A stretch of 64,000 nucleotides of DNA from Candidatus Binatia bacterium (GCA_963666315.2 CAXXHG010000021.1:64001-128000); one strand, 5' to 3'. Positions 42,416-51,290 are shown, counted from the first letter of the stretch. Translations and numbers: made by a program. Notes: a model not told the origin generated them from the sequence alone.

Positions 42416-43576
42416 TCACACAGCCCCGAAGACCTGCTCGACCGCATCCCGGATGGGCTGAAAAACATCACCTGGGGTGTTGGTCATCCGGTTGTGACAA
42501 ATGGCGACCGCCAGGCGGGCATCCGGGTCGGCCCAGGCAATCGCTCCCCCTGCGCCCGGATGGAAGATCGTGCGGGGATTGTGACCAGCCAGACGGAACG
42601 GATAGCGAGGATCTTTCACTCCACCGAGCCACAGTCCTGCGGTCCCCATGCGGATCGGCAAACCGAGGACAGTGTCCGGCTTATCAGTATCCGGGCGCGG
42701 AGTGCTGAAAGTGTTGACCCGCTCTTCGGACAATAAGCGTACGCCGTTTAGCTCACCGCCGTTGGCCAGCATTGCGAATAGCCGGGCTGAGCTGCGCGCG
42801 TTCATGATACCGTGCGCGCCTGGGATACACCCGCCCCGCATATCAGAACGTCCAAAGACCTCCTCGGTCGCGCCGACCTGAGGCGGCATAGCTAGGAGTA
42901 TCGGCGCGTCTGCCGGCAGTGGGAGTGGAGCGGCGTTCTTGAGCCGGGCGACGCGTGGTTCTACTTCTTCAGGAATACCAATCCAGAGATCGGTGATCCC
43001 CAGCGGGGCACAGATTTCTTCCTGTACAAAGGTGCCATACGGCCGCTGTTTGGGATCGGTCAGGCGCACACACTCGGCAATCACCCAGCCGAAGGTGTAA
43101 CACATGTATCCATTCTCGGTTCCGGGCTCAAAAGCGGGCTTCATGCGTGCTAATTGATCGACCATCCAGCCGTAGTCACTCATGAGCTCCGGCGTGACGC
43201 CCTCGGGCATGAAGGGAATACCCAAACGGTGGCTCAATGCGTCCCGGATGGTGGCTTTGTCCTTGCCGTGCGAGGCGAACTCGGGCCAGTAGTGAGCGAT
43301 AGGCGCATCATACTCGATCAGGCCACGCTCGGCTTGGAGATGCAGCGCGGTTGCCGTGGTCGCCTTGATCACGGAGAAGGAGGGGAAGAGAGTGTCAGCA
43401 TCAACCTCTCGCCCGGTGGTTTCATCGGCAATGCCGCTCCAGACGTCTACGACTTGTTCGCCATCAAGATAGACGGCGACCTGTATGCCCAGCTCGCCGT
43501 TCTCACGGATCGTGGTTTCAATGGCTTTTTGAAAAATGTTATTCGCTTCTGGTTTGTTTTCTGCTGTCGCTGCCAT
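42416..43576 (-). CDS. Serine hydrolase, beta-lactamase-like esterase
   Basis: SxxK (FSVIK), IAHYWPEF, LSHRLG, HPGAGG. Confidence 0.9.
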   Translation of the reverse strand: MAATAENKPEANNIFQKAIETTIRENGELGIQVAVYLDGEQVVDVWSGIADETTGREVDADTLFPSFSVIKATTATALHLQAERGLIEYDAPIAHYWPEFASHGKDKATIRDALSHRLGIPFMPEGVTPELMSDYGWMVDQLARMKPAFEPGTENGYMCYTFGWVIAECVRLTDPKQRPYGTFVQEEICAPLGITDLWIGIPEEVEPRVARLKNAAPLPLPADAPILLAMPPQVGATEEVFGRSDMRGGCIPGAHGIMNARSSARLFAMLANGGELNGVRLLSEERVNTFSTPRPDTDKPDTVLGLPIRMGTAGLWLGGVKDPRYPFRLAGHNPRTIFHPGAGGAIAWADPDARLAVAICHNRMTNTPGDVFQPIRDAVEQVFGAV

Positions 43577-43737
43577 AGATTATTCCCCCCTTTTCTCTGA
43601 CTTACGCGCCTTGCTGCCGTTTTGACTGCCTCTGGCTGTTATCCTCTTTTCTGGAAGAGGGAGTCAATAGTGCCGGAGCGCCTTTTTGGCAAGGAGAAAC
43701 GTGCATCGCTATCCGTTTGCGCGCTCTTTGCTATTGG

Positions 43738-43757
43738 CATCAGATCCGATACATGAA
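43738..43757 (+). repeat. att core, left copy: CATCAGATCCGATACATGAA
   Basis: Identical to 49256-49275. Confidence 0.9.
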
Positions 43758-43925
43758 TACAACCTGTGAGATTCCAATAACTTAGCGGGGTGTGGTGTGC
43801 AGAATGCCGCAAAGCGGCGCACAATCCGCAACCTATCCGTAACTAACTCTCTGTGATGTTCTTCCGTTCATAGCCGTTTTCGATGTAGATAAACCGCCAC
43901 CACCGAGCGCTGCTTCATCGCGGAC

Positions 43926-43962
43926 GTTTCAATCCTCACTGGCCCGGTAAGGCCGGTGCTAT
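43926..43962 (-). CRISPR. Solitary CRISPR-like repeat (type I-C-like), no array
   Basis: Minus strand ATAGCACCGGCCTTACCGGGCCAGTGAGGATTGAAAC: 37 nt, CACCGGCC/GGCCAGTG stem, canonical GGATTGAAAC 3' end; no second copy found. Confidence 0.7.
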
Positions 43963-44178
43963 AGCCCATGTTCCAAACCATTAATCCGGCTAGGGTTTTT
44001 ATCTCGTTTGCGCGGACGTAAGAAAAATGGGCTAAAATCCAAACGTCCATCCTGTCTCTTGCGGCCTTGGTGGGCATCTCACCGGGACGCACCCCCTGGT
44101 ATGTATTAACGCAGCGAGTGAGCATCTGAGGGATATTTGCTCATCGAGAAACCGCCTAACTTCTGCTAGGAAGGACCC

Positions 44179-44871
44179 GTGAAATACATCCCGACCATCA
44201 TCACGGTAGTGTTGCTGTTGTGGCCGTTGCCGGTATCTCCCAGTGAGGTAGGCATTGAATGGGACATCCTGAATGAGGAAGCGCAGCAGCTGTATGATAA
44301 GGGCCAATATGGCCGTGCCGTCATAGTTGCCAAAAAGGCCCTTGAAGTAGCAGAGAAAAACGTCGGCCCACACCATCCCGCTGTGGCGACGAGCCTGAAC
44401 AACCTGGCTGAGCTCTACCGAACCCAAGGCCACTACGCGCTGGCCGAGCCGCTCTATAAGCGTGCGCTGGCGATATACGAGCAGGCGCTGGGGCCAGACC
44501 ATCCCCATGTGGCTGCGAGCCTGAACAACCTGGCTGAGGTCTACCGAACCCAAGGCCACTACGCGCTGGCCGAGCCGCTCTATAAGCGGGCGCTGGCGAT
44601 AGTCGAGAAGGCGCTGGGGCCAGACCATCCTAATGTGGCTGCGGGCCTGAACAACCTGGCCTTGCTCTACTCCACCCAAGGCCACTACGCGCAGGGCGAG
44701 CCGCTCTATAAGCGGGCGCTGGCGATAGGGGAGAAGGCGCTGGGGCCGGCCCATCCCGCTGTGGCGACGAGCCTGAAAAACCTGGCCTTCCTTTATCCAG
44801 CCATGAAACGGGATCGGGAAGCCGCAATACTGGAGCAGCGGGCGGCTCGTATACAAGCGATTCAACGATGA
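44179..44871 (+). CDS. Secreted tetratricopeptide repeat protein (kinesin-light-chain-type TPR)
   Basis: Signal peptide; 42-aa repeats GPDHP.VA.SLNNLAE.Y..QG.YA.AEPLYKRALAI, seen as 126-bp near-identical DNA repeats. Confidence 0.92.
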   Translation: MKYIPTIITVVLLLWPLPVSPSEVGIEWDILNEEAQQLYDKGQYGRAVIVAKKALEVAEKNVGPHHPAVATSLNNLAELYRTQGHYALAEPLYKRALAIYEQALGPDHPHVAASLNNLAEVYRTQGHYALAEPLYKRALAIVEKALGPDHPNVAAGLNNLALLYSTQGHYAQGEPLYKRALAIGEKALGPAHPAVATSLKNLAFLYPAMKRDREAAILEQRAARIQAIQR

Positions 44872-44928
44872 CCTCTGTCACTGCTGGATGCACCAGGGAA
44901 TAGTTGGTGAGCATCGACACTCTCGAAA

Positions 44929-45775
44929 TTACGGGAACTCGAAGATCAGTACGTCCGCGTAGAATATATTGAAGGGCTCCAAGAAGTTCAGAGTGGTTAT
45001 GTTACCCCCAATGTCAACAGTCGTCTGTTTTGTCAGGCCAGACAAAACCGTATCGCACACACCGTCTAGCGTGTTGCGGTCGAACCAGTCAAACGAGGAC
45101 GAACTGAATTGAACGCCTCCTTGGACGAAATCGAGACGTCCACTACAGGCGAAGAACCCGTCAGACGTGAGGGGTGTAATATCGATAACGAGTGTCTCGC
45201 CGTCACAGGGATTGGTGACAACCCACGTTGCTTGTTCAGCAACGGAACCCAATACGCCAGAGTCGTCGTCAACTGTCGCTGTTTTCGTGACACACAGGCC
45301 ACTCGGAGCAGGCGGATTTGCTTGCGTATACCCTGTCGCTATAAATCCCTGCGCCCCCTGAGACCACTGGACTGTGACGTCCTGTCCGTTGCTGAGCGTC
45401 ACCACCCCAGTCCCAGACACGCCAGTCAGGAATTCCACACCCGAAGTCACAACCTGAAACGTCACCGTGGCAATCTTGACGCCATCCCGAAAAAACTCTG
45501 CGGTATGTGACCCTTGCCCGAGTAGGTTGTAGTTGAAAATGGAGACGATACCATTGTTTGGATCGGTGCAGGGCGTATCGAGTCGTTCCGATCCATAGGA
45601 CAGTTCTATGATGCTTCCACCATCAAACTGCACGGTGTACACGCCCGGTATGCAGTCCCAAGCGGATATGACAAAGATCCCGCTCATCACCCTGTCCTGC
45701 TCCTGGAATACCGACGGTGAGGGTGTGCACGGGAGCAGCAATTAGGCACAGTAGAATCAATAGTACCGCGCGCAC
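44929..45775 (-). CDS. Secreted beta-rich protein, paralog A (frameshift just after the signal peptide)
   Basis: RBS plus GTG at 45775 gives MRAVLLILLCLIAAP...IPGAGQ; frame changes near 45692 into MSGIFVISAWDC...NNGIVSIFNYNLLGQGSHT. Confidence 0.65.
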
Positions 45776-46065
45776 AGTGATCCCCTTCTGGTTTTGTATC
45801 TCTGTTAGTCTCGTTCAGCGGCCGGTGGCCATGAGCACCGTTGCGAACAGACTAAGACTCGGCCCTCCCGAGTGTCAACGGGTGTCTCCGGCGGTCCGTT
45901 TGCCCGTTGTGAAAATTCGCGGGACTTTCACGGGGATTCGGAGAGAACTGGGCGTACTATCCGGGACCGTAGAGGCGCTTTTCATGCCGAAAAGTCTAAA
46001 AAAGCCACATTTTCCAGCTGCCTAAAGGGCTCTACATAGCGCGAGCACTCTAGTTGAAGATATCC

Positions 46066-46105
46066 TCTCGTGGTGTGGTGACCATATGGTCACCACACCA
46101 CGAGA
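46066..46105. repeat. Perfect 40-bp palindrome with no loop
   Basis: TCTCGTGGTGTGGTGACCAT|ATGGTCACCACACCACGAGA. Confidence 0.95.
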
Positions 46106-46262
46106 CGTGAAAACATGTCCGCTCTGCGCAGAGACGATCAAAGCGGCCGCTCTGAAGTGTCGCTACTGTGGCTCTGACTTGGCGAAAGCTTCGGAGTTAA
46201 CGCCAAGTCAGATTGCTGGAGAGGATTGGGGAACGCAGCGCACGTTGCTTCGGTGGGAGTGA
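46086..46262 (+). CDS. Small zinc-ribbon (UPF0547-like) protein, 58 aa
   Basis: MVTTPRDVKTCPLCAETIKAAALKCRYCGSDL...; below the ORF-track cutoff. Confidence 0.6.
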   Translation: MVTTPRDVKTCPLCAETIKAAALKCRYCGSDLAKASELTPSQIAGEDWGTQRTLLRWE

Positions 46263-46438
46263 GAAGGTCAGCAATTCCCTATGACCCAGTGCTACATGCT
46301 TACCTTTCTGTGTGCAGGGGGAGAAGACGCACAACCGCCCGGTGCCGGTAACTCGTTACTCACTCCGTGACGCATCTACCATCGCGTCCAGTACATCCCG
46401 GACCGGGTCAGGGCCCGGCTCGTCCAGGGAAACTGCAC

Positions 46439-47322
46439 TTATGCCGCCTCCACGGATCCGGAGTACCCGATAAAACAAGGAAGAGACAATCCGGCGCAGG
46501 ATCCACTGACCCGATCCGCCAGTATGAGAAAGACCAGGGATCCGTCCAGAAAATTACCAGCAAAACCAGCTATCAACGCGTACGTACACGATTCCGCCGT
46601 GCTCACAGAAGCCTCGCCGACGAGAACAAAGTCTCCATTCATTTCGAGATCGCCGGTGAAGGTGGACGAGCCGCTCAGGACGGTAAGTGCACTGCCGTTC
46701 TGGGACACGGAAAGTGTTCCACCGAGCTGGGTGGGCAGATCGGGGGGTACCTCAATAAAGTTACAGTCTTCGGTCAGGAACGAGAGCGACATTGCCCAGG
46801 TGCCAGCGACATTTGGAAACCCCGGGTCCGGGGTTGGAATCACCGGGCCCGGGGTTGCCTCTGTCACGACAAATGCTTGGAGTGATTGCCTCCACGTCAG
46901 CGCTGCTGTCGATCCATCCGACAGGGTGGATGTCCCTGACCCGGTCATGCCGGTTTTGAATTCCCCGAGCCAAAGTGGACAACCTGAAAGGTGACGGATG
47001 CAAAACTCGCGGCTCCATCAAAGGCTTGGAAGGTATGAGTACCTTGCGAGAGCCGATTAAAATTGTACTGGGCAATCCAGCCGTTGTTGGTGTCATTGCA
47101 GACACTCTCCGTATCCGGACGATCAATGAGACCGGCGAGAGGGAAAGCTGCCCCTCCGTCGATCCGCCCACTCAATGCCCCTTGGGCACATTTCCACCCG
47201 GCGAAAAAATAAATCCCGCTCATCTCTTCGTTGGCGCCCGGCACTTCAATGACACTCGCTGTCGCTGTGCCCATCCACATCAGCGCACCGATGATTCCAC
47301 ATAGTACTCGCGTTTGCATCAT
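46439..47322 (-). CDS. Secreted beta-rich protein, paralog B (frameshift in a G-run near 46965)
   Basis: Signal peptide; MSGIYFFAGWKC...NNGWIAQYNFNRLSQGTHT...VTFQVV | EFKTGMTGSGTSTLSDG...WRQSLQAF. Confidence 0.7.
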
Positions 47323-47553
47323 GCCCCCCTTAAACGCCGTACGAGAATCTCTTACGTGGGTAAATGATTTCACAGGAACGTTCCGCTTCTGGCCCAGGTC
47401 AGTATACACACAGACTTTGGCAGAAACCAACGGAAAGAGCGGAATAAGCCCCCCTATATTCGCTTATTTCGCTGTGGAAGGCGCAATATCACCGAGTGAT
47501 GCCACTCGTCGTACTGCGGAACCCCATTCTTCTTGGCCGGGTTAGAGGCGGGG

Positions 47554-47796
47554 CTACGAGGTGGACGAGCGCCTCTTCTCCTCGCGGTATCGTTTCACGC
47601 GGTTTTTCCGGCGCTTGACGGCATGCCGTTGGTAATCCGCTCGGGCGCTGCAGGCAGGGCGACAATAGCGCTTCTGCCGGACCCCCTCGAACGTTTCGCC
47701 GCAGACCGGGCAAACCTTTTTCACGATGACGATTTTTTTCGTATAACTCCGGGGCTGAATCACCCGCTCAATCACTCTAATTTGTTCCTCTGCCAT
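47554..47796 (-). CDS. Small basic Cys4 zinc-finger protein, divergent from the integrase
   Basis: CPVCGETF...RYCRPAC plus Arg/Lys-rich tail; GGAGG RBS. Confidence 0.65.
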   Translation of the reverse strand: MAEEQIRVIERVIQPRSYTKKIVIVKKVCPVCGETFEGVRQKRYCRPACSARADYQRHAVKRRKNRVKRYREEKRRSSTS

Positions 47797-48042
47797 TTCG
47801 CCGCGTCCTCCGCAGTGAAGATAGATTCTGTTCGCCCTAATGTCAACGTATTTATTAAAATATCCTCGACATTATCGTTCAGGTAATTTATAATGATCTT
47901 GTACTATACAGACGAGAACACACCCGTGCAGAAACCACACCGAGATAGGACACGCGGAAGGTGAGATGCCGCCCAGCGAATAGATTTTTATACGTAGCCC
48001 GTGGCTGAAGCGGCTAATGTGACGAAAGTCAGGAGGTAAACT

Positions 48043-49212
48043 TTGGCAGTAAAAGTTCGCAAACGGAAAGAGCTGTGGTGGGTTTACATTGACCACAACA
48101 ACAAACGCAAGGCCAAGTGCATCGGCCCCAGTAAACGGGCGGCTGACCAAGTGGCGGAGAAGATTCGGGCGAAGCTGGCACTGGGGCAGTTCTCGCTTGC
48201 TGAAGAAGACGCGAAACAGGCAGTCAGCTTCGCTAACTATTACGACCGCTGGCTCAATACCTACGTCGCAGGTTCTGCCAAGCCCAGCACGATGGTGGCG
48301 TATGAATGTGTCGGGCGGTTGTATTTACTTCCGGCGTTTGGCGATCGGCTGTTGCGCGATATTGCGCCGAAGGATGTCCGTGCCTTTGCGTACGGTTTGG
48401 TGGCCACGCAACTGAAGCGCAATACGATCATGAGTATCCTGATCCCGCTCAGCAGCATATTTCGGTTCGCCGTGAAAGACGAGCTGTTGCTCCGTAATCC
48501 GGCCGGCGGCATTGCAGGTGAGATTGGCAGTGCAAAGCAATCCGACCAGCGCCCGGCTGACTTTCTCACCAAGGAGGAACTCGGAGCCCTGCTGCGCTGC
48601 TGCCAAGAGTATTTACCGGTTCGGTATCCCTTCATCTCCCTCTTGGCCAAGAGTGGCTTGCGTATTGGGGAAGCCCTGGCGCTGGAATGGGTCGATATCG
48701 ACTTCGACGGGCGTTTTATCCACGTCAGCAAGACCGCAGACAGGGGTCGGATCGGTAGCCCGAAAAATGGCAAATCACGGCGCGTCGATATGAGCCAGGG
48801 CCTCGCTGACACATTGAAGCGGCTTCGTGTGACGCAAGGCAAACGTGCGCTAGAAAGTGGGGTACCGGCACCCCGGTTGCTCTTCCCAACGAGATCGGGC
48901 CGACTAATGGATCGGACAAACGTCTACCGCTGTATCTGGGGCCCACTCTTGAGGAAGGCGGGATTTCGGCAGATCCATGTCCATGATCTCAGGCATACGT
49001 TCGCAAGCCTGTTGATCCAGAACGGTGAATCCCTAGCCTACGTGAAAGAGCAGATGGGCCATAGCTCGATCAAGATGACGGTGGACACCTACGGGCACCT
49101 CGTACCGGGTGGCAACAAAGCGGCTGTGGACAAGCTGGATGGGCTGGAAGAGGCAACCATCCGCAACCCAGCCGCAACCGGCGGCTGTGAGCGAAAATAC
49201 GAAGCTGGCTAA
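48043..49212 (+). CDS. Site-specific tyrosine integrase
   Basis: Catalytic R (GLRIGEA), K (PKNG), HxxR (HDLRH), H (MGHS), Y (DTYGH) all intact; AGGAGG RBS and TTG start. Confidence 0.95.
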   Translation: MAVKVRKRKELWWVYIDHNNKRKAKCIGPSKRAADQVAEKIRAKLALGQFSLAEEDAKQAVSFANYYDRWLNTYVAGSAKPSTMVAYECVGRLYLLPAFGDRLLRDIAPKDVRAFAYGLVATQLKRNTIMSILIPLSSIFRFAVKDELLLRNPAGGIAGEIGSAKQSDQRPADFLTKEELGALLRCCQEYLPVRYPFISLLAKSGLRIGEALALEWVDIDFDGRFIHVSKTADRGRIGSPKNGKSRRVDMSQGLADTLKRLRVTQGKRALESGVPAPRLLFPTRSGRLMDRTNVYRCIWGPLLRKAGFRQIHVHDLRHTFASLLIQNGESLAYVKEQMGHSSIKMTVDTYGHLVPGGNKAAVDKLDGLEEATIRNPAATGGCERKYEAG

Positions 49213-49255
49213 GTTACTGAAAGAATTCGGATATTCGAGAATGATCGACACATTA

Positions 49256-49275
49256 CATCAGATCCGATACATGAA
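49256..49275 (+). repeat. att core, right copy: CATCAGATCCGATACATGAA
   Basis: Identical to 43738-43757. Confidence 0.9.
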
Positions 49276-49304
49276 GGGCAATCGACACGAAAACTGGCGG
49301 ACAC

Positions 49305-51290
49305 ATGACACAACAGGTACCCACACCATCGCTGACGGAAAAGGATCAACCGCTCTGGACCCCGACGCCGGAATTAGCCCGGCAGACGCAGCTGGCCGAG
49401 TTCATGCGCCGCGTTGGCCAGCAGGACTTTCCCGACTATCACTCTCTGTGGGAATGGTCGGTTAAAAATCCGGGCGCATTCTGGTCTGCCGTCTGGGATT
49501 TTTGTGGTGTTATTGGGGAGAAGGGTGGCGTTTTGCTGCACGACGGCAGCAAAATGCCGGGAGCGCAATTTTTCCCGCAGGCCCGTCTGAACTACGCCGA
49601 AAACCTGCTCCGACGCCGTGATAGCCAGACTGCTTTGATTTTCCACCCTGAGACCGGGGCGGAGCGGAGTGTGAGTTTTGCCGAACTGTATGACCGTGTC
49701 AGCCGCTGGGCACACGCGCTGAAAGGCGCCGGGGTGCAAGAAGGCGACCGCGTTGCGGGTTATATGCCAAACATGCCGGAGACGATCATCGCCATGCTCG
49801 CAGCGTCCAGCATCGGGGCGGTCTGGTCCTCGGCCTCGCCGGATTTTGGGGTACAGGGAGTGCTAGATCGATTCGGACAGATCGAGCCGACCGTTCTTAT
49901 TGGGGTTGATGCGTATTTCTACAACGGCAAAAAGGTCGACTGCCTGTCCAAAGTCCGCGGCGTTCAGCGCCAACTGACAGGCCTGAAAAAAACGGTCATT
50001 GTCCCCTTTGTGTCGGACAGTCCCGATCTGAGAGGTCTGACAGATACTGTGAGCCAGGACGATTTCATTGCGCCGTGTGCGGCTGAGGAGATCGCCTTCA
50101 CCCGCCTGCCTTTCAATCATCCGTTGTTCATCATGTTTTCCTCCGGCACCACGGGTGCCCCAAAATGTATTGTCCACGGCCAGGGTGGGACGCTGATCCA
50201 GCATCTCAAGGAACACCGCCTGCACTGCGATATTCGTCCTGCTGACCGGGTGTTCTATTTCACGACGTGTGGCTGGATGATGTGGAACTGGCTGGTTTCG
50301 GCCCTGGCGAGTGAAGCCACGCTGCTACTATACGACGGCTCGCCCTTCTACCCCGACGGACATGTGTTGTGGGAGTTTACCGGTGCGCACCACTGCACCC
50401 TCTTTGGCACGAGTGCGAAATATATTGACGCGCTCAAGATAAACGGCCTGCGTCCCGGCGACACACATGATGTGAGTGCACTGAGAACTATCACTTCCAC
50501 CGGCTCACCGTTGGTGCATGAGAGTTTCGATTTTGTGTACGATGCGATCAAGCGCGATGTGCATTTGGCCTCGATCGCCGGCGGGACGGATCTCATATCC
50601 TGCTTTATGTTGGGCAACCCGGTCTCTCCGGTCTGGCGCGGGGAAATCCAAGAGGCTGGACTGGGCATGGCGTTGGCTGTGTTTGGCGAGGACGGGCTAC
50701 CCATCCCGGCCGGCGCAGGGGCGGGTGAGCTTGTCTGTACCCAGCCGTTCCCGAGTATGCCGGTGGGTTTCTGGAATGATCCCGACGGAAGCAAATACCA
50801 CAATGCCTATTTCGATCGCTTTGAGTCTGTGTGGTGCCATGGTGACTGGATTGAGCGTACGGTCCATAACGGGATCATCATCCACGGTCGCTCTGATGCG
50901 ACACTCAACCCGGGCGGCGTACGCATCGGCACGTCCGAAATCTACCGTCAGGTGGAGCAGGTCGAAGGCGTGGTCGAGAGCCTGGCGGTTGGACAGGACT
51001 GGAAGGCCGACGTGCGGGTGATCCTGTTCGTTACGCTGAAGGACGGCCTGGAGTTGACGCAGGCGCTGGAGAAAGACATCAAAACGCGCATCCGCTCTGG
51101 CGCTTCCCCCCGCCATGTCCCGGCCAAGATCATGCAGGTCGCGGACATCCCGCGTACCAAGAGCGGTAAAATCTCCGAACTCGCCGTCCGCGACGTGCTC
51201 CTCGGCCGACCGGTCAAGAACCTGACCTCGCTCGCCAACCCGGCGGCGCTGGAGCTGTTCAAGGATATTCAGCTCCTACAGGAAGATTGA
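49305..51290 (+). CDS. Acetoacetate--CoA ligase
   Basis: [56 protein letters not shown]. Confidence 0.93.

Follow-up and report, generated by a model that had tools for sequence, protein, structure and literature searches.

What is the 5.5-kb segment that lies immediately upstream of an acetoacetate-CoA ligase gene in a Candidatus Binatia genome, and how did it get there? The segment occupies positions 43738-49275 of the 64,000-nt stretch of DNA analyzed here (hereafter the window, positions 64001-128000 of contig C21 in genome G000, a 47-contig bin of 4,986,022 bases that is 92% complete). An earlier annotation made from the sequence alone, which we refer to as the original prediction, had read the segment as a complete and discrete integrative element that carries its own integrase and sits at a non-tRNA attachment (att) site. 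The evidence presented below supports this reading, and we consider it highly likely that the 5518-bp segment is an integrative island that was inserted site-specifically, by its own tyrosine integrase, at a non-tRNA attB site. In what follows, C-numbers designate contigs of G000, other G-numbers other genomes, L-numbers loci, and X-numbers metagenome runs. One of these genomes, G009, represents a sister species, in which the regions flanking the segment are 94-95% identical to those of G000 at the DNA level. The metagenome evidence covers positions 43300-49700 and comes from four public runs (X1, X2, X3, and X19) in the form of assembled contigs, which drop rare forms; X19 is probably the source sample of G000 and hence no independent witness.

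The segment is bounded by a perfect direct repeat and carries an intact integrase

The two ends of the segment are marked by a perfect 20-bp direct repeat, CATCAGATCCGATACATGAA, whose left copy (the attL core, 43738-43757) and right copy (the attR core, 49256-49275) are 100% identical and lie 5518 nt apart, start to start. The repeat is thus present where the original prediction had placed it, and these are its sole two copies in the 4,986,022-base assembly when up to two mismatches are allowed, with a reversed-pattern control giving none. By our own calculation, a chance pair of identical 20-mers within 7 kb would be expected about 2e-5 times. No tRNA or tmRNA gene was found within the 64-kb window.

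The genes on either side are chromosomal. The left flank is a beta-lactamase-fold serine hydrolase encoded on the minus strand (42416-43576; PF00144, E 2.2e-65), which is conserved at ~81% DNA identity in 12 relatives of the genus, while the right flank is the acetoacetate-CoA ligase, encoded on the plus strand (49305-51290; NF002937, 952 bits vs a cut-off of 639). The attB site lies in the divergent intergenic region that these two genes share, and the element, as had been proposed, parts the ligase from its native upstream region. The short distance reported between the right core, which ends at 49275, and the ATG of the ligase at 49305 is likewise borne out, at 29 nt.

Between the cores, and close to the right one, an uninterrupted open reading frame (ORF) on the plus strand (48043-49212) encodes a 389-aa tyrosine integrase. 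The protein matches Phage_integrase PF00589 (E 2.3e-27), a SAM-like N-domain, and the phrog_1 integrase family (E 6e-72). Alignments with the solved integrases 3nkh and 6en0 reveal that the catalytic R, HxxR, H, and Y are all kept (in the motifs GLRIGE, HDLRHTF, GHS, and TYGH), and the integrase is therefore intact, as the original prediction had it.

A relative lacking the segment joins both flanks through a single core

If the segment is a discrete insertion, relatives that lack it are expected to show one core joining the two flanks. This is what we found in a contig from X3, a seawater run; the host of the element is an uncultured marine bacterium. The contig (record 24; 1320 nt, depth 8.9) is ~92% identical to the window (24 differences in 285 nt). 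It covers 43305-43589 and 43714-43757, the latter stretch including the whole core, followed by eight other letters that replace 49276-49283, and then continues from 49284. The part of the window that it skips amounts to 5526 nt, which corresponds to the 5518-nt element plus the eight substituted letters, with a single core joining both flanks.

The occupied form of the site is also found beyond G000. In G009, the attL and attR junctions are both occupied, and the attR core recurs as an exact copy, in the corresponding position, in G009 and two metagenome contigs. The occupied attL is covered by X2 records 17 and 23 and by X1 record 1, and a 4320-nt X2 contig runs from the integrase gene (int) through attR into the ligase. 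The X19 contigs tile the whole element, both junctions included, at a depth of ~2. As for the two metagenome contigs found with the exact core, one is the G009 contig, and the other has an integrase truncated at window position 48506. This second contig (L031, 2338 nt) carries 531 nt of unrelated sequence before the cut integrase and the ligase alongside, and illustrates how the element has decayed or been replaced in a related population.

Other genomes have little to say about the site. A DNA search with the ligase flank in 41 genomes matched G000, G009, G010, and G036 only, that is, the ligase is found by DNA search in 3 of 40 other genomes, and G010 is uninformative because its contigs end on both sides. 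A search with the hydrolase flank matched 22 of 28 genomes of the genus and reached the core in G009 only. In 12 relatives of the genus (loci L019-L030; window 43577-43667), the neighbor of the hydrolase is the ortholog of G000 C11:8006-9262 rather than the ligase, and since synteny is already broken there, these genomes cannot show the att site. The adjacency of hydrolase and ligase has therefore either arisen recently or marks the border of a region that is variable.

The inner arms are conserved in related elements that have different cores

The original prediction had noticed candidate arm-type motifs next to both cores. The inner left arm (P'-type; 43758-43843, plus strand) contains TAACTTAGC at 43778-43786 and the tandem ATCCGCAACCTATCCGTAAC at 43824-43843, and the inner right arm (P-type; 49159-49216, plus strand) contains ATCCGCAACCCAGCCGCAAC at 49159-49178, inside the 3' end of int, and GCTAAGTTA at 49208-49216. 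Within the 64-kb window, ATCCGCAAC has two sites, at 43824 and 49159, both on the plus strand, a count that is not significant, as at least two sites also occurred in 20 of 100 shuffles. There are also two sites for TAACTTAGC, at 43778 on the plus strand and at 49208 on the minus strand, and at least two were seen in 1 of 100 shuffles.

What speaks for both motifs is their conservation in the arms of related elements. The left arm of the window element is 97.7% identical to that of G009 and aligns with the arms of C39, C32, C19, L088, and L044 as well; the block ATCCGCA.CCTATCCG.AAC is near-invariant among these arms, which also have CAATAACTTAGCGG and ATCCGCAACCTATCCGCAAC in common. The right arm is kept as GCAACCATCCGCAACCCAGnCGCAACC, inside the 3' end of int, followed at a distance by GCTAAGT, in G009, C39, C38, L037, L038, L040, and L044, and ATCCGCAAC is found at most 90 nt from the end of int in 34 of the 80 family loci surveyed below. 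The arm-like direct motifs and the inverted TAACTTAGC/GCTAAGTTA pair therefore both stand, at the positions first given for them and with conservation across paralogous and orthologous elements whose cores differ. The family consensus of the TAACTTAGC motif presumably resembles that of integration host factor (IHF), and "IHF-like" is to be taken as a label only.

The integrase belongs to a family that mostly targets tRNA genes

To place the element, we surveyed 80 loci with homologous integrases (34-96% identity), mostly from Binatia, Nitrospirota, and Acidobacteriota, 74 of which have at least 250 nt of sequence after the integrase. A tRNA gene lies within 200 nt of int in 60 of these 74 loci, in all 60 on the opposite strand, and the tRNAs concerned are Met (17), His (12), Arg (11), Thr (8), Lys (5), Leu (5), and Ala (2). 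The remaining 14 loci include the G009 copy, four with tRNA fragments recognized by eye (L042, L076, L110, and L113), and one in which the tRNA is 462 nt away. In the three closest relatives of the window integrase (L037, L038, and L040; 51-55% identity), a tRNA is truly lacking. They are plain integrase-plus-cargo islands located beside the ends of genes, namely mfd, an aminotransferase gene with its start 33 nt beyond int, and TENA. In IMG/VR, four predicted proviruses also have an integrase of this family, with 39-42% identity.

G000 itself harbors several paralogous islands. The one on C39 has an integrase 62% identical to that of the window and is flanked by the two copies of a 19-bp direct repeat (CACCCGATTGTCCAGATGT; C39:70852-70870 and 84179-84197) that are separated by 13.3 kb, with inner arms that align with those of the window. 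Its genes encode HTH_17, AAA_25, SET-domain, class IV aminotransferase, LRAT, and RadC proteins together with a member of the secreted-protein family that is also present in the window element (see below). The island (C39:70852-84197, L123) lies within the first ~16 codons of an ORF (MMKGLATITPHPIVQM...). A by-eye assignment of this ORF as VOC-like was withdrawn, as no Pfam family was found in either frame. The island at C27:48500-63000 (L126) encodes HTH_17, a Prim-Pol/PriCT/D5 primase-helicase, a weak match to a small terminase, and an integrase; to this satellite-like backbone are added TPR, Sel1, and subtilase cargo. C37 carries AAA_25 and DUF3854.

In this family the arms are conserved and the cores differ. 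In C32, C19, and L088, the left arm known from the window comes after the 3' fragment of a tRNA, which is tRNA-Thr(CGT) as judged by reading of the anticodon loop. A "CnnCnGAT" string at the left edge of all cores, considered as a core-binding half-site or as an echo of the tRNA anticodon arm, was rejected, since five shared positions in freely aligned short sequences are too weak.

The element lacks the usual backbone genes but encodes a small zinc-finger-like protein

The ORFs of the element were scanned against Pfam (nine ORFs) and against NCBIfam and PHROGs (eight ORFs). These scans revealed no replication, conjugation, capsid, or packaging family, in agreement with the original prediction, and no relaxase, mobilization gene, or type IV secretion system. 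The primase/helicase module and the AlpA-type regulator found in islands C27, C39, and C37 are absent from the element, and tblastn detected in it no remnant of the C39/C27 HTH_17 or of AAA_25. The terms "minimal" and "possibly helper-dependent" that had been applied to the element fit these data, as it has no HTH_17, AAA_25, or primase, unlike the related islands of G000.

What the element does have, divergent from int, is a gene on the minus strand (47554-47796) for an 80-aa basic protein with a CxxC-x12-CxxxC motif, which we named zn80. Homologs upstream of and divergent from int were detected, by a motif search over 3 kb, in L037 and L038 only, that is, in 2 of the 60 loci with enough upstream sequence. 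In the library searched, zn80 has 297 relatives at E<=0.001 and 13 at E<=1e-10. An alignment of 42 of the 150 relatives listed, chosen as small single-stretch proteins, yields the consensus CPxCG..F.G....YCS..C..KA.Y.RHA, after which comes a basic helix. None of the Pfam families reached its cut-off; the best was zf-MYND, matched by 15 of 43 members with a best E of 0.001. The AlphaFold (AF2) model is a confident one, with a predicted local distance difference test score (pLDDT) of 84. With this model, a Foldseek search of the PDB gave no match at E<=0.001, and a VIA wide search gave a best Z of 3.2, with none at Z>=5.

The region between zn80 and int (47797-48042) appears to be a divergent control region. 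The two best promoter-like sites of the region stand back to back there, at 47866-47894 on the plus strand toward int and at 47846-47818 on the minus strand toward zn80, with 11/12 and 10/12 consensus matches. As the total of promoter-like sites equals chance expectation, this pair is suggestive by its placement alone. We take zn80 to be the likeliest candidate for the role of regulator or directionality factor. Comparison of the loci suggests that the sub-clade to which the window element belongs has moved to non-tRNA sites beside gene ends and travels with zn80.

The integrase is constrained, which argues against a fixed relic

We compared G000 with G009 to estimate nonsynonymous divergence (dN), synonymous divergence (dS), and their ratio (omega). 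For the integrase, dN is 0.015, dS 0.091, and omega 0.16, to be compared with 0.018, 0.173, and 0.10 for the hydrolase and 0.023, 0.193, and 0.12 for the ligase. The integrase is under purifying selection, and its synonymous divergence is about half that of the flanks. Moreover, the interior of the G009 element departs from that of the window right after the left arm, at 43843, and the two elements have different cargo. Taken together, these observations fit an exchange at the same attB, or a re-insertion there, once the species had split, but they do not prove current mobility.

Several observations weigh against an island that was inserted site-specifically and is still able to move. The empty site is represented by one contig (n=1) from a single run, at ~92% identity to the window, and an exact-core scan of metagenome contigs gave occupied right junctions only (2/2). 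The attL and attR cores of G009 disagree at 2 of their 20 positions and retain 16 identical bases. The scans against Pfam, NCBIfam, and PHROGs revealed no excisionase of a known family (Xis, AlpA/HTH_17) among the element ORFs, and the contigs of the four runs, which cannot show rare forms, contain no attP joint or excised circle. There is a gene fragment at the left and one split cargo gene, possibly from decay, in an assembly that shows other small indels. Finally, with the same site occupied in two species whose flanks are ~94-95% identical, the element may have been inherited vertically and be immobile now.

Taken to its end, this last point leads to a different history, in which a single integration in the ancestor of G000 and G009 was followed by loss of the excisionase and the backbone, leaving a fixed, immobile relic whose integrase was kept by chance or for another role. 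Occupancy of the same site in two species would be explained in this way, as would the absence of HTH_17/Xis-type and replication genes, the gene fragment and split cargo gene, the two changes in the G009 attL core, and the truncated integrase beside the ligase in L031. We nevertheless consider such a relic unlikely, because the repeats in G000 are perfect, the integrase is constrained (omega 0.16) and has about half the synonymous divergence of the flanks, the cargo differs between G000 and G009, and the split ORF is possibly due to an assembly indel.

A phage satellite, a ligase switch, and an assembly artefact are less probable

Another reading of the element is that of a phage satellite or a minimal island mobilized by a helper, that is, packaged or transferred by a helper phage or another element. 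The satellite-like backbones of C27 (HTH_17, Prim-Pol/D5, and the weak small-terminase match) and C39 (HTH_17, AAA_25, and RadC) point in this direction, as do the four predicted proviruses with integrases of the family (39-42% identity), and the minimalist marine satellites named PICMI are reportedly similar in size to the window element. The element itself, however, has no primase, AlpA-type, packaging, or capsid-related gene, no helper was identified, and the closest members of the family are likewise plain integrase-plus-cargo islands, all of which makes a satellite improbable.

The original prediction went further in suggesting a regulatory role: excision, releasing a 5518-bp circle, would rejoin the ligase to its native upstream region and could act as a switch. 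In such a switch, reversible excision would turn the ligase on or alter its control. This part of the prediction fared poorly, and we regard it as very improbable. The arrangement is compatible with a switch, since the core lies 29 nt before the ligase ATG and the insertion replaces the native upstream region, the hydrolase-ligase intergenic region being continuous in the X3 contig. Moreover, read-through from int into the ligase is plausible because the stretch from the stop of int to the ATG of the ligase has no site resembling a promoter or a terminator. However, the ligase is intact, with an omega of 0.12 in two occupied lineages, which argues against its silencing and for its functioning with the element present. 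No excised form is seen in the contigs of the four runs, and the element contains no gene of ketone-body metabolism. Insertion at gene ends is also usual in the sub-clade (L038, L037, and L040), and because the genes that adjoin the integrases of these relatives (aminotransferase, mfd, and TENA) are unrelated, the position is a habit of the family and not specific to the ligase. As an observation apart, an in-frame duplication of 18 nt directly follows the start codon of the ligase in G009 (L012) and in an X2 contig (window 49297-49305; MTQQTQLTQQ...).

Known switches of this type, such as the skin element in sigK, the Listeria comK prophage, and the heterocyst nifD element, interrupt a coding sequence and undergo programmed excision. 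The window element resembles them in being an integrase-bearing element placed so that its excision would restore a native gene arrangement, but it differs from them in that the ligase ORF is intact and constrained with the element present, and excision is unseen in contigs.

Lastly, that the repeat and the insertion are artefacts of a misassembled metagenome bin, as might be feared from 47 contigs, a depth of about 2 in the run that holds the element best, several small indels, and a multi-copy module and a perfect palindrome inside the element, can be dismissed for the junctions, which recur in G009, two metagenome contigs, X1, and X2 and between which the X3 empty site skips exactly the element, and is scarcely credible overall even if the order of the interior could be wrong.

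The small indels deserve a word of their own. The cargo gene at 46439-47430 and the integrase paralogs at C39:82987-84113, C38:108369-109495, and C43:155891-156909 are split by small indels, as are the ORF at the C39 att site (L123:13566-14032) and, judged by eye, the signal-peptide region of the first secreted-protein gene. The three closest integrase paralogs each gave two tblastn pieces in different frames, and at 46445, 46447, and 46966 the X19 and X2 contigs show indels of 1-2 nt relative to the window. These indels in the G000 bin are probably assembly errors resulting from low depth. Since several genes are split in this way, "pseudogene" calls in this bin are unsafe. In addition, the summed contig depth in the four runs at 43728-44155 and 44370-44797 is 10-100x that of the rest of the element, which reflects contigs with the CRISPR repeat described below, related arms, and TPR repeats of more abundant organisms.

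Cargo between the left arm and zn80

The interior begins with a stretch (43844-43897) that is 96% identical to C37:23928-23981, a gene fragment by eye and probably a remnant. The first cargo gene, on the plus strand (44179-44871), encodes a 230-aa TPR protein with a hydrophobic N terminus (TPR_12, E 2.7e-62; TPR_10, E 9e-50), which has paralogs on islands C24 and C27 with 74-77% identity. It is followed on the minus strand (44929-45741) by a gene for a putative secreted, beta-rich protein of a lineage-specific family that matches no Pfam, NCBIfam, or PHROG family and has at least 10 paralogous matches in G000. A signal-peptide-like start is visible, by eye, in another frame just upstream, and the Atlas leads for this protein are weak (Big_7-like, at most 0.84). 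A second member of the family, recognized by paralogy, lies further right on the minus strand (46439-47430) in two frames, with ORFs at 46945-47430 and 46439-46948. The X19 and X2 contigs are 2 nt shorter at 46966, which by frame arithmetic would fuse these two ORFs.

Between the two secreted-protein genes is a 47-nt multi-copy motif starting TGTTGTGAAAATTCGCGGGACTTTCACGG (45901-45947, plus strand), with eight sites in G000 at 91-95% identity and high contig depth in the runs. The motif (TGTTGTGAAAATTCGCGGGACTTTCACGGGGATTCGG...) is followed by different sequence at its eight sites, the others being C19:41505-41551, C19:49402-49448, C27:49118-49164, C24:113307-113353, C46:113326-113371, C14:76383-76428, and C14:58744-58781; a hairpin-rich conserved stretch of ~70 nt comes after three of the copies. 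It could be a promoter/operator, the start of a small RNA, or the end of a repeat element. A perfect 40-bp palindrome with no spacer (46066-46105) overlaps the start of the next gene, on the plus strand (46086-46262), which encodes a 58-aa Zn-ribbon protein (UPF0547 PF10571, E 5.5e-8; PHROG families of unknown function). In the homologous C19 copies, a tandem ATGGTGACCAT pair takes the place of the palindrome, which may reflect a genuine inverted duplication or have arisen by fold-back during assembly. In an Rfam scan of 43000-50000, the sole match besides the CRISPR-DR9 one described below was to an miRNA, on the palindrome, and is meaningless.

A solitary CRISPR-type repeat in the element

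On the minus strand at 43926-43962, the element carries a solitary 37-nt repeat of the kind found in CRISPR arrays. It consists of a hairpin and a 3' tail ending in GGATTGAAAC, which we take to be that of a type I-C repeat. Its match to Rfam CRISPR-DR9 (28.4 bits, E 0.0035) was obtained in E-value mode and is below the gathering score of 45. The repeat is single-copy in G000 at up to eight substitutions. A periodicity scan of G000 found no CRISPR array, and no Cas1, RAMP, Cas6, Cas7 (PF05107), or Cas5d was found in this genome, which is 92% complete.

In a set of 401 genomes from the class, copies with at most three mismatches occur in G000, G015, G042, and G073 only, and the window repeat is 2-3 mismatches away from the repeats of the mini-arrays in the three others. 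G015 and G042 each have a mini-array of two repeats just upstream of a gene for a GYD-domain protein, and the ~36-nt spacer between the repeats is the same in both genomes. In G073, a two-repeat mini-array adjoins Cas7 (366 bits) and Cas5d genes, and there is a separate solitary copy too. The loci concerned are L035:1429-1537, L033, L156:18291-18400, and L158:14410; in reference Binatia genomes, the repeat is seen as singletons or two-repeat mini-arrays only. "Goes back" joints of the repeat in X19 and X2 contigs, with 35-37 letters between, correspond to repeat-spacer-repeat units, and PF05107 (the Cas7 family) is present in 4 of 27 other members of the genus. Because relatives have mini-arrays of it, that of G073 beside Cas7 and Cas5d, it is a true repeat of type I (I-C-like) that belongs to the class. 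Conservation of the spacer across G015 and G042 suggests a regulatory unit resembling a CRISPR RNA (crRNA) rather than adaptive memory.

The hairpin fold is kept in the window repeat, with one stem mismatch relative to the G015 repeat, and the repeat overlaps an 85-aa ORF that has no family matches or homologs. Over a distance of ~340 nt upstream of it on the minus strand, a consensus scan did not reveal any promoter-like site, and no other element of the family among the 152 loci examined carries the repeat. Solitary repeat units on mobile elements are described in PMC10651486 as RNA anti-CRISPRs (Racr), small RNAs that inhibit the formation of Cas complexes, and about 90% of their hosts have CRISPR-Cas. 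The window repeat is similar to Racr in being single, on a mobile element, away from arrays and cas genes, with its hairpin kept, and of a type used beside Cas7 and Cas5d in the same bacterial class. It departs from the same description (PMC10651486) in that G000 is without cas genes or arrays, no promoter-like site lies directly upstream, the stem has a mismatch, and an ORF overlaps it. The repeat is thus either a candidate RNA anti-CRISPR or a recombination scar, and we find it rather doubtful that it has a function.

Discussion

The segment is a real and well-delimited integrase island; its present-day mobility and a role as a ligase switch are unproven. In the mechanism that we propose, the tyrosine integrase of the element would have recombined its attP with a chromosomal attB sharing the 20-bp core. 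The integrase would probably bind arm sites of the ATCCGCAAC type that stand in tandem on either side of the core, and the inverted TAACTTAGC and GCTAAGTTA motifs are probably bound by an accessory protein with a bending or directionality function. The element would be a reduced member of a mostly tRNA-targeting family, one that has kept int, zn80, the arms, and the cargo. Since it has no excisionase-type helix-turn-helix (HTH), replication, transfer, or packaging gene, excision would probably require either zn80 or a factor supplied by a related island of the same cell, and another vehicle would be needed for passage from cell to cell.

A broader scenario would join several of these strands: the sub-clade formed by the window element, L037, L038, and perhaps C39 would have left tRNA genes for gene ends, the treble-clef-like zn80 would have replaced the AlpA/HTH_17 excisionase, and the solitary repeat would be an RNA anti-CRISPR on a minimal island that is neither phage nor plasmid. 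We put it forward tentatively, as its parts are unlikely to hold all together.

How does the element compare with known systems? It shares with islands and prophages in tRNA genes the integrase family (PHROG 1/PF00589), att direct repeats, arm-type repeats, and an integrase gene at one end facing outward. Unlike them, the window element, L037, L038, L040, and C39 use non-tRNA sites, and the window element is very small (5.5 kb) and without an excisionase-type HTH gene. Integrative and mobilizable elements (IMEs) carry mobilization genes or an oriT, and cis-mobilizable elements (CIMEs) lack an integrase of their own, whereas the window element has no relaxase in our scans and an intact integrase. 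It is nevertheless similar to IMEs and CIMEs (PMC5704250) in having att sites and little else, with transfer that would depend on other elements. A likeness to dusA-specific integrase islands (PMC4482086) lies in insertion at the start region of a protein gene and not in a tRNA gene, within ~16 codons in the case of C39. The differences from those islands are that other genes are targeted and that the insertion in the window is 29 nt upstream of the ORF rather than inside it.

Keyword literature searches returned no description of Binatia mobile elements among their top matches, which is not proof of absence. The element itself is ordinary, and it changes no general principle. It does provide, for the uncultured Candidatus Binatia, a cleanly delimited mobile element that has been checked against an empty site, and it offers in zn80 and the solitary CRISPR repeat leads that are cheap and testable. 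Near-identical arms combined with three kinds of core, one a tRNA anticodon arm and two non-tRNA, are, moreover, material for the study of target-specificity shifts and for integrase prospecting.

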